Shown: positions 1-64,000, counted from the stretch's first letter. The stretch is DNA of 64,000 bases from Escherichia phage Turkey3 (PQ471515.1); one strand, 5' to 3'. The notes: generated by a model not told the origin, from the sequence alone. Translations and numbers: made by a program.

Positions 1-146
1 AATGTAAGTCGCTACAGTTCCACACAGATGCGTGAGTTTGCCAAGAATGAAGATTTTAATAGCTTCAGTACTTTTCTACCTGGTAATGATGATGCACTGA
101 AAATTAAACTATTTGAAGATGTAATAAAATACATGAGGAAATAACT

Positions 147-440
147 ATGTCAGTACTGTTTAAAACTAACCCAGTACTTTGGGATCAGAATGAGGATTCG
201 GGTTTCCGTTCAATCCATGTTGAATTCAAAGGTAATACGGTGGTTGCAATCATTGCAAACAAAACTTTAGGAAACTGGACTGCACAAGTTGTTCCTATGG
301 GATATTCTTATACATCTGATGAAGTTGCGTTTCTGGCTGAATTATATAGTCAAACACCATTCATCATCAATGTTTTAGAGCGTAGTGATAAGTTAACACA
401 TGACGAAGTAATTGACTTCCTGGCGAACTTACATGTCTGA
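147..440 (+). CDS. hypothetical protein (97 aa)
   Basis: Complete ORF; GAGGAA Shine-Dalgarno upstream of ATG; no recognisable motif. Confidence 0.55.
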   Translation: MSVLFKTNPVLWDQNEDSGFRSIHVEFKGNTVVAIIANKTLGNWTAQVVPMGYSYTSDEVAFLAELYSQTPFIINVLERSDKLTHDEVIDFLANLHV

Positions 441-720
441 TGATTCGAATCTAACAGGTTATTTTTTACAAGAATCAATGATCAAATTCAGTGAACATTT
501 TCCAGTACTAGATGGTGTGGAGATGTGGCATGTAAAACCACTCTTCCACACTTTCAGCAAAGAGCACAAAATGTTATTGACTGAGGCTTGTAAATCGAAT
601 AAAATATGCCAAATCAAGATTGGTGTAAATGTCTACAAAGGATTAGTCATCTTTTTTGACAACAACAGCAACTACTTTTATATTGTTAAGGAGCATTACG
701 TTGACAAATACAAATACTAA
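433..720 (+). CDS. hypothetical protein
   Basis: ORF in track from 412; ATG at 433 overlaps upstream stop (typical phage coupling). Confidence 0.5.
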   Translation: MSDDSNLTGYFLQESMIKFSEHFPVLDGVEMWHVKPLFHTFSKEHKMLLTEACKSNKICQIKIGVNVYKGLVIFFDNNSNYFYIVKEHYVDKYKY

Positions 721-1312
721 TACATACTTTCGTTATCTTCGCCTAGGGCTTTCCCTACGCCCAATCCGTGGTAAGTGTGATTCACTTGCTGATTTGGATT
801 ATGCATATGCATTACATTGTGATGGTGTTCAATATGTATTAGGTGACTATGGCACATTCGAAGAATCCAATGACAGTTCAGAAATTATTGCTGGTGTTGC
901 TAACCTTAACAACATTGCCAATAGTTCTCGTCATGAAATCGTTCTTGAAATTCAGAACTTCATTGAGAAAAATACTGGCAAGCGTACATGGTCATATGTC
1001 GGTACTGATGCACAAATGTCAATCGCATTTGGTAACGAAGATGGTTATGTAGCACAACTTATTATGGATTTCGAATCAGAAGAGAAGTTCCTAGAATACA
1101 AGGAAAAAATCATCCAATCCTTGTTGCAAATGGGTATTCCTGAAGATCGTATGCCTGAAATTCAAAGCATTGATGAGTTTGTTCTTATCCCATCTGATGA
1201 AAAATATGATGCGATGTTTACAGCACTGAACATTCCTGGTGTAGTTGTTGAGTACTTCGATGATGGTGATGGTGACATTTACCTAGATCTCGACGACGAT
1301 GATGATGAATAA
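701..1312 (+). CDS. hypothetical protein with poly-acidic C-terminal tail
   Basis: Track ORF 656..1312; in-frame TTG 701 preceded by AAGGAG (688-693); C-terminus DGDGDIYLDLDDDDDE. Confidence 0.5.
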   Translation: MTNTNTNTYFRYLRLGLSLRPIRGKCDSLADLDYAYALHCDGVQYVLGDYGTFEESNDSSEIIAGVANLNNIANSSRHEIVLEIQNFIEKNTGKRTWSYVGTDAQMSIAFGNEDGYVAQLIMDFESEEKFLEYKEKIIQSLLQMGIPEDRMPEIQSIDEFVLIPSDEKYDAMFTALNIPGVVVEYFDDGDGDIYLDLDDDDDE

Positions 1313-1319
1313 CACATAT

Positions 1320-1346
1320 AGCCCGACATAAGTTCGGGCTATTTTT
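1320..1346 (+). terminator. intrinsic terminator
   Basis: Hairpin AGCCCGA/TCGGGCT (7 bp, 7-nt loop) followed by ATTTTT. Confidence 0.7.
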
Positions 1347-1358
1347 GTAAGGGGAAAT

Positions 1359-1628
1359 ATGAATTACAAACATATACAATTCACTTATATGGAATTATTT
1401 AAATTACACCATAATCACAGAAGTACTAACACAATTAATAAAAATGCGTTTACTCATAAATTATGGTCAAATTACCTAGAAGAATTACGTGAGTATTTTA
1501 TTGATACTGAAATTTTCATTAATGGAAAAAAACGAAAGATACTTAGAGTCGATAGTTTTGGTGGTAGATTAGTACTTTCATATAAATTTGATAACGACTT
1601 ATTCTCTGTTGATTTGGTGAATATATGA
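1359..1628 (+). CDS. small paralog family A protein (IQFTYK N-terminal motif)
   Basis: ORF; N-terminus MNYKHIQFTYM shared with 5 neighbours; tandem array. Confidence 0.6.
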   Translation: MNYKHIQFTYMELFKLHHNHRSTNTINKNAFTHKLWSNYLEELREYFIDTEIFINGKKRKILRVDSFGGRLVLSYKFDNDLFSVDLVNI

Positions 1629-1885
1629 ATTATAAAGATTTCCAATTAACATTCAAGTGCATTCGTGACCTAGCAAATAAAAATAATAGTATATTTTTAG
1701 AAGATACATGTATTGAAATGATTAATATTGTGCGTGAGAGGATTAAAGAAAAATTCAGTACTGTAATTATCAACAACGATCATGCAGAATTTTCAGATAT
1801 AATCATTAAGCTCGATGGTAAAGTAGAGGTACAGTTCTACACTGATTTTGGATTTACGAGTGTTCCTCTGGAGATATTCCCTTGA
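1625..1885 (+). CDS. small paralog family A protein
   Basis: ORF; MNYKDFQLTFK N-terminus; ATGA overlap with upstream gene. Confidence 0.6.
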   Translation: MNYKDFQLTFKCIRDLANKNNSIFLEDTCIEMINIVRERIKEKFSTVIINNDHAEFSDIIIKLDGKVEVQFYTDFGFTSVPLEIFP

Positions 1886-61750: not shown

Positions 61751-61961
61751 AAAACAAATATTATCAGGTTACCGTAATAACACGTTGCACTACAATGACT
61801 TAAAGTACTGGGTTGACCCACACAACAATAAGTCATTGTTGCTGTACAGAGATAAATTTCGAGATTTGTACGGTATATATGACACACAGTTAATATACTT
61901 AGTTGATACCGAACATTTTGCTCCTATGGTATACTTGTATTGCTTGTATAATTCCAAATAA
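61743..61961 (+). CDS. hypothetical protein
   Basis: Complete ORF. Confidence 0.45.
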   Translation: MAKKQILSGYRNNTLHYNDLKYWVDPHNNKSLLLYRDKFRDLYGIYDTQLIYLVDTEHFAPMVYLYCLYNSK

Positions 61962-62011
61962 CTATTAGCACCTCTAAATAATGTATATAAACATTAATGA
62001 GGTGCTTTTTT

Positions 62012-62803
62012 ATGTCTTACGATTATATGGGTGGAAACCCAGATGCTCCAAACTTTGATCATCGTGAAAAACTGAAAGATGTTATCACTCAAATGTTAGG
62101 TGCTGGTGCAGTTGAAGTTGAAATTACTGATGGTCAATTGGAAATTGCAATTGATAATGCGGTATCAAACTACCGAGCATGGAGTTCTGCTTCAAAAGAA
62201 GAAGCATTCTTGAACATGAAATTCTATGATTCACAATCTGTATACATGCTTCCTACTGAAGTTGAAATTGTCAAACAGATTTATCGTTATGGTAACGGTT
62301 ATCTAAGTTCTGGTAGTGGTAACTCAGTAGACCCTTTTTCACTCGCATTTACCAACACTTACCTTTTAACGTCTGCACGTAACGCTGGTGGTTATGACTT
62401 AACTACTTATGATTTTAGTTTTCAATTCCAAGAATTAGTTGGGCGTATGTTTGGTAGAGAAATCATCTTCCAGTTCAACCCAATGACCAAAAAACTAATA
62501 ATTGATCGTGATATTCGCGGTACTGAAGAAGTGCTATTACATGTATATCATAATATACCTGAACCATTGCTATTCCAACGTCAACAAAGCTATCCTTGGC
62601 TACGTGACTGGGCATTGTCTGAAGCTATGATTATGTTGGGTCGCAACCGTGCTAAATTTGCTACATTGCCTGGACCACAGGGTACATTCTCTATGGATGG
62701 TGATACATTACGTAATGAAGGTGCACAACTTCAAGAACAGCTTAAAGAACAGTTGAAGAGATACAAAGATGGTGGTGATCCACTTGGAATGATTATCGGA
62801 TAA
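62012..62803 (+). CDS. hypothetical protein (263 aa), possibly virion-associated
   Basis: Track ORF from 61997; ATG 62012 after upstream hairpin plus T-run. Confidence 0.5.
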   Translation: MSYDYMGGNPDAPNFDHREKLKDVITQMLGAGAVEVEITDGQLEIAIDNAVSNYRAWSSASKEEAFLNMKFYDSQSVYMLPTEVEIVKQIYRYGNGYLSSGSGNSVDPFSLAFTNTYLLTSARNAGGYDLTTYDFSFQFQELVGRMFGREIIFQFNPMTKKLIIDRDIRGTEEVLLHVYHNIPEPLLFQRQQSYPWLRDWALSEAMIMLGRNRAKFATLPGPQGTFSMDGDTLRNEGAQLQEQLKEQLKRYKDGGDPLGMIIG

Positions 62804-62813
62804 AACAAAAAAA

Positions 62814-62839
62814 AGACTCCTATATGGGGTCTTTTTTTA
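62814..62839 (+). terminator. intrinsic terminator
   Basis: Hairpin AGACTCC/GGGGTCT (one G-U) followed by TTTTTTT. Confidence 0.7.
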
Positions 62840-63179
62840 TATGTTGTGATATAATGATAATATTAATCTAAAGGAACCTGACATGAATAACAACATAGAT
62901 GCAATGTATGCAATGTATAACAAATATACTTGTGGAGCACCTACATTGGATTATGAATCAACCGAAAAGAACTGGAAATTTATAAAAGAATCAATCGTAG
63001 ATGTTTTCGGTAGAGATCGAATAAACGCGTGGGCGAGTATATGTCGTGATGATAATGGGGAAACATTCTTCATCACTTATGTCACTATATATTATGGGAG
63101 CGAGTTTATAGTTGGATTACTTGAATGTTTAGTAGGAAAGGATTTAGTAGTACTTATATAATATACATGGAGAAGTATT

Positions 63180-63806
63180 ATGGAAAGACAAATAATTGCA
63201 ATTAACGGTACTATCGGTAGCGGCAAAGATACTTTTGGTGAAACTTTTATCAATAATGGTTACACCAGAATGTCATTTGCAACTAATCTTAAAGATTCAG
63301 TTGCTGCTATCTTTGGATGGGATCGTGAAATGCTTGAGGGTTCGACTAAGGAAAGTCGTAAACTCCGTGAAGAGCCAGACCAGTACTGGTGCGAGAAGTT
63401 GGGTCGTAACGATGTTTCCCCTCGTTGGGTATTACAGAATTACGGAACTAATATTTTGCGTAAGTACTTTCATAATGATATTTGGGTACATAGTTTAGAG
63501 AAGTCAATGCAATCGGTTGAAGGGAATATTATCATCACTGACTGTCGATTTCCAAATGAACTAAAAATGGTTCGTTCACTAAATGGTATCGTGATTGAAG
63601 TTCAGCGTACTCTCCCACACTGGTATGGTTTAGCAGCATCTTTTAATAAAGGTGATATTAGTATGAAGCCAATTGAGTTAGAATCAGTACATGAATCTGA
63701 ATGGGCGTGGATTGGTATCAATAATCCTGATATCATTGTACAAAATAATAGCACAATTGAAGCGTTGCACCAACAAGCATTGAGCGTTATTTATGCCAAT
63801 AAGTGA
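63180..63806 (+). CDS. 1: deoxynucleoside monophosphate kinase (T4 gp1-like)
   Basis: P-loop NGTIGSGKDT; YGTN and ITDCRFPNE segments parallel T4 gp1. Confidence 0.8.
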   Translation: MERQIIAINGTIGSGKDTFGETFINNGYTRMSFATNLKDSVAAIFGWDREMLEGSTKESRKLREEPDQYWCEKLGRNDVSPRWVLQNYGTNILRKYFHNDIWVHSLEKSMQSVEGNIIITDCRFPNELKMVRSLNGIVIEVQRTLPHWYGLAASFNKGDISMKPIELESVHESEWAWIGINNPDIIVQNNSTIEALHQQALSVIYANK

Positions 63807-63900
63807 AATTAAAACAATTAGGACTTGACATTCAAATCCTTCAATAAATAAGACTATACGAATATAATTCGAATAACCAATTATTTTTGGAGGATTTAAT

Positions 63901-64000
63901 ATGGCAGGAGATCTACTCTCACCTGGCGTTTCCATTTCAGTAACTGATGAAAGTATGAGTACTGCTGCTGCTCCTGGCACAGTACCACTATTTGTAATCG
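63901..64000 (+). CDS. tail-sheath-like protein, 5-prime partial (runs off window)
   Basis: ATG 63901 after GGAGG; N-terminus MAGDLLSPGVSISVTDES resembles myophage sheath N-termini (T4 gp18 MTLLSPGIELKE). Confidence 0.4.
   Translation, partial: MAGDLLSPGVSISVTDESMSTAAAPGTVPLFVI

Follow-up and report, generated by a model that had tools for sequence, protein, structure and literature searches.

Why should a phage genome that avoids short palindromes carry one of them, AGTACT, once every few hundred base pairs? The question is raised by a stretch of 64,000 nucleotides from Escherichia phage Turkey3 (PQ471515.1, one strand, positions 1 to 64,000; hereafter the window), for which a genome-wide excess of this hexamer had been predicted from the sequence alone. 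Exact counting over positions 1-64000, without assignment to a strand, returned 177 AGTACT sites (2.8 per kb), slightly more than the 150-170 tallied by eye. The extended octamer CAGTACTG was found in 38 copies where fewer than one is expected (an exact match lies at 151-158), and the decamer TCAGTACTGA in 11 copies against ~0.1 expected, among them those at 5517-5526, 7203-7212 and 16467-16476; these coordinates, together with 30409-30416, had all been given correctly. The expectation of about 20 hexamers and under one octamer was likewise sound, composition giving 18-21 hexamers. Markov models predicted 21.5 (order 0), 18.2 (order 1), 35.5 (order 2) and 62 (order 3) sites; the order-4 value of 151 lies near the observed number because pentamers already hold the motif, which makes that comparison circular. 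AGTACT was the most frequent hexamer of the window, followed by AAAGAA with 119 copies, and had by far the highest z-score. The window has 34.8% G+C and every long open reading frame (ORF) lies on its plus strand. Its identity to EC.P1 (99.3%), to CMSTMSU and fEgEco12 (98%) and to 121Q, G17, PBECO4 and Sharanji (~85%) assigns its source to Asteriusvirus, within the RaK2-like group of ~350-kb jumbo myoviruses. The predicted genome-wide reach of the excess was borne out in a second 50-kb region of EC.P1 (100-150 kb) and in 243 kb of 121Q, which harboured 697 sites. The window, EC.P1 and 121Q had 2.4-2.9 sites per kb, and extrapolation from 121Q gives about 1000 AGTACT sites per ~350-kb genome.

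The distribution of sites among genes was analysed with our own ORF calls, not a curated annotation (123 plus-strand genes, with 93% of the window coding). Called genes contained 161 sites, about 91% of the total, against 41.8 ± 5.5 when synonymous codons were shuffled inside each gene and 23.2 ± 4.6 when codon order was shuffled; the excess is thus well beyond 2-fold, at 3.8-6.9 times the codon-shuffle expectations. For the octamer the corresponding values were 36 observed against 2.8 and 0.9. As had been proposed, all three reading frames and non-coding DNA carry the word, each being enriched separately: by the synonymous shuffle, 76 sites against 22.2 in frame 0 (z=13; all AGT-ACT, Ser-Thr), 29 against 7.7 in frame 1 (xAG-TAC-Txx; z=9) and 56 against 11.8 in frame 2 (xxA-GTA-CTx, Val-Leu; z=15), and 15-16 against 1.4 expected in non-coding DNA. 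The two codon shuffles and the per-frame tests rule out codon usage or dipeptide bias as the source. AGT-ACT spelled 76 of the 128 Ser-Thr dipeptides (19 expected), and the dipeptide excess itself was directional, Ser-Thr occurring 128 times against 80 expected with Thr-Ser at 79, and Val-Leu 159 times against 109 expected with Leu-Val at 106, so that the DNA word exerts enough influence to shape protein sequences. Confinement to one repeated gene family was not found, since 85 of the 123 genes contained AGTACT and per-gene counts followed a Poisson distribution from which no gene deviated. Within the window the sites showed no preference for gene starts or ends, which rules out a promoter, terminator or ribosome-binding element as the general role there, and the ~91% share inside genes rules out an operator confined to intergenic regulatory DNA. 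Inter-site spacing averaged 363 bp, with a largest gap of 1418 bp (P=0.018) and a coefficient of variation of 0.875 (P=0.04), and was thus slightly more regular than random.

What exactly is being recognised was apparent from the anatomy of the word. Of 265 occurrences of AGTAC, 177 (67%) continued with T, whereas half-sites outside full sites were only 1.3-1.4-fold enriched. The one-mismatch neighbours of AGTACT were 1.1-3-fold enriched and none was depleted, ruling out a conversion drive of the very-short-patch type. Among 510 pooled Asteriusvirus sites, nearly all information resided in the six core bases. The sole flank signal in that set was a C at -1 and a G at +1 (45%, 0.3 bit), and left and right flanks mirrored each other (n=510, P=0.16); G at -1 was disfavoured (10% in Asteriusvirus and 18 of 177 sites in the window) and in every clade it was the base least favoured there. 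At -3 and -2, T is preferred. There was no information beyond ±1, so window sites share no extended flank similarity. The recognition unit is the complete symmetric hexamer with a C/G flank preference; such two-fold symmetry speaks for a reader of duplex DNA and against an RNA signal or a primase site. Confinement of the information to a symmetric 6-bp core also rules out a DNA uptake sequence, which would be asymmetric and 9-12 bp long; the palindromic word and its mirror-symmetric flanks exclude an asymmetric, orientation-biased hotspot of the Chi kind; and the lack of flank similarity past ±1, together with the Poisson counts over 85 of 123 genes, excludes a repetitive extragenic palindrome (REP), a miniature inverted-repeat transposable element (MITE) or a paralogue repeat, the exception to this non-repeat rule being the early promoter units described below, which are repeated.

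Comparison with relatives indicated that the word is under selection as DNA. Against 121Q (83.5% nucleotide identity) 64% of AGTACT sites were intact versus 41% of all hexamers, and against Turkey5 57.5% versus 25%; site gains equalled site losses, at 34 each. Third bases were then scored in AGT, ACT, GTA and TAC codons whose first two bases were conserved, inside the motif and elsewhere. With 121Q, 85% were kept inside the motif and 67% in the same codons elsewhere (P=1e-4); with Turkey5 the values were 88% and 59% (P=3e-8). In ph0011, which carries 68 sites in 42.7 kb (6-fold excess), the difference was not significant (79% inside versus 71%), and this may be a lineage with relaxed constraint. 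The proposed constraint on the DNA thus holds on three counts: the separate frames, the non-coding excess, and extra purifying selection at synonymous positions within the motif. At ~50% protein identity (Munch, pEa_SNUABM_12, XaC1, XbC2 and fHe-Yen9-04), 10-21% of window sites coincided exactly with a site in the relative, 30-80 times chance, and the other 80-90% of positions had turned over while density stayed constant. Density is kept and positions are not; selection therefore acts mainly on density, which suggests a global rather than a gene-specific role. No correlation between site density and protein conservation was seen in the window. Lost sites had mostly become AGTTCT (a Thr-to-Ser change) rather than AGTATT, which rules out a signature of 5-methylcytosine deamination. 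AGTACT is a positively selected DNA word.

The excess, expressed for this comparison over the order-1 expectation, proved to be a property of the phage clade. It amounted to 9.3-fold in 121Q, 9.6-fold in Turkey5, 8.9-fold in Munch (Salmonella), 9.1-fold in fENko-Kae01 (Klebsiella), 12-fold in pEa_SNUABM_12 (Erwinia), 13-fold in fHe-Yen9-04 (Yersinia), 11-fold and 8.7-fold in the Xanthomonas phages XbC2 and XaC1, 7-fold in a region of RaK2 with genes on both strands, and 6.6-fold in the second 50 kb of EC.P1. A 6-13-fold excess was thus common to all RaK2-like phages tested, whose hosts belong to Escherichia, Klebsiella, Salmonella, Erwinia, Yersinia and Xanthomonas. No such excess was found in T4 (4 sites, 7.5 expected), in the phiKZ-like Desertfox (11 sites, 4.3 expected) or in E. 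coli K-12 (3 sites in 50 kb). Phage density is 30-45 times that of the 50-kb E. coli sample. PA5oct (60-100 kb), a distant relative with the same G+C, contained one AGTACT against 14.3 expected, that is, it avoids the word. Use of this one hexamer differs ~100-fold between PA5oct and the RaK2-like phages. Flank preference also tracked phage lineage and not host, being C/G in Asteriusvirus, RaK2 and XbC2 and weak or A/T in Munch, fHe-Yen9-04 and XaC1; the Klebsiella phages RaK2 and fENko-Kae01 differ from each other, and XaC1 also enriches GGTACT. The original prediction had suggested a recognition site for either a phage or a host factor. A recognition site fits the sharp symmetric hexamer; of the two kinds of factor, one of phage origin is favoured, because the excess follows the phage clade over six host genera, Xanthomonas included, and the flanks follow lineage.

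Enrichment is the more exceptional in that palindromes are otherwise purged. Avoidance of short palindromes, presumed in the original prediction to be usual among phages, does apply to this genome: 26 of the 64 six-base palindromes, all G+C-rich, have zero copies in the window, GATC is halved (99 against 202 expected), and both CCGG and GGCC are under-represented. These shortfalls amount to strong restriction avoidance, in contrast to AGTACT, for which observed over expected is ~10. AGTACT is the type II restriction target of ScaI and of Eco255I from E. coli. That G+C-rich palindromes have been purged while ~1000 copies of a restriction target are tolerated suggests that the sites are protected. 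The loss of GCGC was complete, with none in the window against 34 expected and none in the 684 kb examined from 12 phages of the clade, whose hosts span six genera; observed over expected was 27/39 in PA5oct, 48/49 in T4 and 342/388 in E. coli. Such a complete loss suggests an agent lethal per site, which could be, for example, a phage GCGC-specific nuclease aimed at host DNA. In XbC2, TGCA is strongly depleted (32 against 121 expected), whereas it is not in other clade members.

Sites also occupied fixed positions in early promoters. In 121Q, AGTACT density was uneven: 1-2.4 per kb in the replication module, 2-4 over most of the genome and 5-8 at 130-155 kb, where a series of very small genes that have promoters of their own forms the terminal-repeat early region. 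Relative to the strong early σ70-type promoters of 121Q, such as those at 142484 and 138237, AGTACT offsets peaked at -7/-8 in 17 promoters and at -27 to -30 in 14. In the first slot the word ends 1-2 nucleotides upstream of the -10 element, as AGTACTgTATAAT or AGTACTggCATAAT, the TG of the latter forming a canonical extended -10; in the second it abuts or overlaps the 5' edge of the -35 element, as aaaaAGTACTTGCAA or AGTACTATTGACA. Several promoters had both slots filled, with centres ~21 bp apart. The same arrangement was found in fENko-Kae01 (~60% protein identity to the window's phage), whose early region is annotated as a 19.7-kb direct terminal repeat: within it, aaaaAGTACTTGACA, with the word abutting the -35, occurs in 13 promoters, AGTACT(t/gg) followed by TATAAT or CATAAT in 9 promoters, and density is ~5-6 per kb, falling beyond the repeat. 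Because this slot architecture recurs in 121Q and fENko-Kae01, the word appears from sequence to be also an operator-like or promoter-specificity element of early genes. Past the start site (tTTACATCaag) of the early promoters (L019 35000-50000 of 121Q; L021 1-19736) there is a conserved G-rich hairpin, GGGGAGAA..TTCTCCCC, which would give early transcripts a 5' stem-loop.

Promoter context accounts for only one of the 177 window sites. This promoter-type site, at 30396-30432 on the plus strand and upstream of an ATG at about 30451, consists of TTACAT (30396-30401), a 16-nucleotide spacer ending in CAGTACTG (AGTACT at 30410-30415) and TATAGT (30418-30423), with a second AGTACT at 30427-30432. 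The two words at 30410-30432 can form a 10-bp hairpin (-10.2 kcal/mol, RNA folding) with a run of T after it. An intergenic inverted pair, AGTACTGCTAAT...ATTAGCAGTACT, at 32894-32932 on the plus strand forms a 12-bp stem (-15.8 kcal/mol) and is followed by a separate, canonical terminator hairpin at about 32935-32958. The hairpins that had been predicted from these paired copies are thus both real; they are nonetheless incidental, because the annotated terminators of Munch contain no AGTACT, and the 30410 pair overlaps promoter-like sequence.

Taken with the restriction-modification-like precision of the word, these observations point to a phage protein with that kind of specificity as the probable reader of AGTACT. 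The explanation that we favour, tentatively and at somewhat less than even odds, is that AGTACT is a recognition word on duplex DNA, read by a phage-encoded factor and serving as a private, dense chromosome mark comparable to GATC and Dam. Its candidate writer would be an orphan adenine methyltransferase of the PF05869 family found throughout the clade, which would methylate an A of AGTACT. Methylation would shield the ~1000 ScaI/Eco255I-type sites from restriction, and the mark would be read at early promoters, switching them, and genome-wide by processes that need close marks, such as self-recognition, organisation or repair. The enzyme is encoded in 121Q by gene 417 (173 amino acids; PF05869, Dam family, N6-adenine). 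The best 60 tblastn matches to it among 50,697 phage records were all RaK2-like, at 42-100% identity: 84-100% in Asteriusvirus, 66% in the Munch/fENko/Muenster group, 63% in RaK2 and K64-1, 49% in XaC1, 45% in fHe-Yen9-04, 44% in XbC2 and 42% in Eneladusvirus. CBB and Serratia BF carry a PF05869 methyltransferase as well, so that it was present in every clade member examined, and its EC.P1 copy, at 305548-306069, is located ~2.8 kb from the window, beyond the window's start. It was the only methyltransferase found here to span the clade. The PF01555 methyltransferase of Eneladusvirus and Mimasvirus is ruled out as the clade-wide factor by its absence from Asteriusvirus, and a large homology search with it returned no specificity names; gene 91 of 121Q encodes a C5-cytosine methyltransferase unrelated to the PF01555 enzyme and was also discarded. 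For RaK2, methylation of the CpG type has been reported (RaK2 paper). A search for solved structures homologous to the PF05869 enzyme found none.

Several points weigh against a methylated mark. The nearest PF05869 homologue outside the clade is that of Staphylococcus phage 80, which has 9 AGTACT sites against 11.3 expected; enrichment thus does not track the family beyond the clade. Characterised PF05869 enzymes are mostly GATC-specific or relaxed, and co-distribution of the gene with the excess is weak evidence, many genes being clade core. Palindromes with two G/C pairs, such as GAATTC and GATATC, are not avoided, which weakens the need for site protection. No reader of the mark (a SeqA, MutH or repressor analogue) was identified, no whole-genome search for such genes having been made. 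In the early regions ~40-50% of promoter-like matches, some of them false positives, lack AGTACT, and the promoter counts are inflated by units duplicated as paralogues. Digests of fEgEco12 DNA, which ten other enzymes cut normally with maps matching the in-silico prediction (fEgEco12 paper), exclude global hypermodification only.

The main rival in our ranking, possible though on the unlikely side, holds that AGTACT is the unmethylated site of an abundant architectural or repressor protein, functionally analogous to phi29 p6 or SPO1 TF1, a dimer of which would nucleate on it, coat or organise the chromosome and occlude early promoters at about -38 and -16, phage and host DNA being told apart by site density. 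Such a protein would agree with the operator-like slots, whose fixed positions lie some two helical turns from each other and are conserved between genera, as well as with the conservation of density rather than position and with flank preferences that follow phage lineage. The capsid has an inner body, and these phages, according to published descriptions, lack both a phage nucleus and base modification on a global scale, so that another mark of self DNA would be needed. However, a contiguous 6-bp site almost devoid of flank information is atypical for helix-turn-helix proteins and typical of restriction-modification enzymes, no candidate protein was identified, and tolerance of ~1000 restriction-type sites would be left unexplained. 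A further, doubtful proposal combines both palindrome signals: self would be defined by a sequence signature, in which AGTACT density is read, perhaps in adenine-methylated form, by phage proteins governing early promoters and DNA transactions along the whole genome, and GCGC elimination would let a phage nuclease destroy host DNA safely. If true, this would be a motif-density self/non-self system of a kind not described for any virus.

It is improbable that AGTACT is instead the target of a phage nickase or endonuclease whose frequent nicks or breaks would, at any point of the 350-kb genome, start recombination-dependent replication or load the sliding clamp for late transcription of the T4 type. 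T4 late transcription can use nicks for clamp loading, and T5 and phage tf carry site-specific nicks. The symmetry and enzyme-like precision of the word would suit such an enzyme, as would its dense, fairly even coverage, and a T4-like replisome, gp46/47, a late sigma factor of the gp55 type and HNH endonuclease genes are present in the clade. Nevertheless, the HNH gene of the window did not turn up in those loci of Eneladusvirus and Mimasvirus that were examined, which discards its product as the reader; the fEgEco12 restriction maps gave no sign of fragmentation; the fixed promoter positions are given no reason; and known phage nick sites are few and asymmetric.

Very improbable, and already largely refuted, is a non-adaptive origin with no reader at all, in which the excess follows from codon or dipeptide bias, a repeated gene family, a mobile repeat, or mutational or gene-conversion drive. 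The near-match of the order-4 expectation, circular as it is, the commonness of Ser-Thr and Val-Leu dipeptides and the mild enrichment of one-mismatch neighbours, as turnover predicts, could be cited for it. It is contradicted by the excess over codon shuffles in all frames and in non-coding DNA, by the spread of sites over 85 unrelated genes, by the direction of the dipeptide excess, by the lack of any depleted near-cognate word, which a conversion drive would predict, by the added purifying selection at synonymous sites, by the fixed promoter offsets and by the opposite bias of PA5oct at the same G+C. Less credible still is a single-strand or RNA signal, be it an extended primase site (5'-CAGTA-like) or an mRNA motif, AGUACU, that an RNase or RNA-binding protein recognises: a T4 gp61-like primase is present in the clade, a spacing of ~360 bp suits Okazaki priming, and the one-strand orientation of the window genes leaves DNA and RNA levels inseparable by strand, but the asymmetric pentamers AGTAC and GTACT reach only ~1.4-fold when not part of the complete palindrome, which is the unit, a single-strand reader does not require mirror-symmetric flanks, regions whose genes run on the opposite strand or on both (EC.P1 100-150 kb, RaK2) are just as enriched, and sites occur in untranscribed promoter spacers. 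Least credible of all is a host-factor site, such as that of the nucleoid-occlusion protein SlmA, which the phage could use to block cell division, or of another conserved host DNA-binding protein: the 12-bp SlmA consensus, GTGAGTACTCAC, has AGTACT at its centre and the excess occurs in phages of several enterobacteria, yet the flanks around that shared centre are opposite, which rules SlmA out (the required G at -1 is the least-favoured base, GAGTACTC occurs once in the window and the outer GT/AC is not enriched), the excess is equally strong in two phages of Xanthomonas, hosts that are not known to have SlmA, MatP or Dam, and flanks differ between phages sharing a Klebsiella host.

Returning to the methylated mark that we favour, a close parallel would be the GATC/Dam/SeqA/MutH system of E. 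coli, which shares a short adenine-containing palindrome, dense and rather even spacing, clusters, fixed regulatory placement and an orphan adenine methyltransferase conserved in the lineage, the clade's enzyme being a candidate for this part. It differs in that GATC occurs near chance frequency whereas the AGTACT hexamer is enriched ~10-fold to reach a useful density, in that AGTACT methylation is only proposed, and in being cellular rather than viral. The unmethylated binding protein of the main rival would share with phi29 p6 and SPO1 TF1 a phage factor acting along the whole chromosome, a distinction of self from host and repression of early promoters; p6 reads bendability and TF1 hydroxymethyluracil DNA, and neither reads a defined hexamer. 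The uptake signal sequences of Haemophilus and DNA uptake sequences of Neisseria are likewise present at ~1 per kb or more, in genes and in all frames, with peptide distortion and occasional intergenic hairpin pairs, but they are asymmetric 9-12-bp words read by the competence machinery and spread by uptake bias, and AGTACT is a 6-bp palindrome in lytic phages. The ScaI/Eco255I target is identical in sequence and has the same enzyme-like precision; such targets are normally avoided by phages, while AGTACT is enriched 10-fold. The SlmA site shares the central six bases, with C and not G at -1 in the phages and no conservation of the outer bases. Stoperators of mycobacteriophage L5 resemble AGTACT in being one short phage-specific word scattered genome-wide and also present at an early promoter; they number ~30, are asymmetric 13-mers, intergenic and oriented with transcription, unlike the ~1000 symmetric hexamers lying mostly in genes.

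A 10-fold enriched palindromic hexamer across a phage clade that doubles as an early-promoter element appears to be new. No earlier mention of the motif was found in the literature searched, including publications on Sharanji, fEgEco12, RaK2, PA5oct and phAPEC6. Chi, GATC, uptake sequences and the FtsK orienting polar sequences (KOPS) each revealed a major bacterial machine for handling DNA, and we know of no equivalent genome-wide functional word in phages. The protein that reads AGTACT would bear on how self and host DNA are distinguished without a nucleus or modification, on the timing of early transcription and on the tolerance of ~1000 restriction targets. AGTACT density is also a simple signature for spotting the clade in metagenomes, and the reading predicts sensitivity or resistance to ScaI-type restriction, which is relevant to host range in phage therapy.

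Further observations were made around the early region of 121Q. An unannotated 2 kb at 135.2-137.2 kb (L019 35194-37161), inside the densest 5-kb bin (39 AGTACT), contains triple AGTACT clusters, e.g. at 136969-136998, as well as short tandem repeats, GTGATCAGTA, and might represent an origin, a packaging region or one end of the genome. At 155-160 and 165-170 kb (L020 5000-10000 and 15000-20000), two blocks of small genes have 5 sites per 5 kb against 12-32 in their neighbours and may be recently acquired DNA that has yet to take on the motif. Adjoining the early region, at 117-131 kb on the minus strand (L019 17089-31255), lie 14 tandem paralogues annotated as RCC1-like 'DNA condensation' proteins; proteins with RCC1 domains have been suggested as candidates for the capsid inner body (phAPEC6 paper).

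In the window itself, the T4 late promoter consensus TATAAATA was absent from both strands. The word cTAAATA(a/c), which could be a variant of that promoter, was found at 20138, 33051, 35723, 45562, 48820, 60207 and 61975, 19-39 nucleotides upstream of several start codons, and TATTTA, the antisense form of TAAATA, was strongly depleted (6 against 52 expected, order 3). Products encoded in the window include DNA ligase, ClpP-like proteases, deoxycytidine monophosphate deaminases, Sir2, Nudix, PhoH, NrdD/G, three large structural proteins, spanins, an HNH protein, a Dps-like protein, thymidine kinase and lysozyme. The DUF4326 protein adjoining NrdD/G (34911-35237) is 78% identical to that of the Xanthomonas phage XaC1 (L010 6440-6730), against 41-45% to closer relatives, a pattern that may reflect gene exchange.

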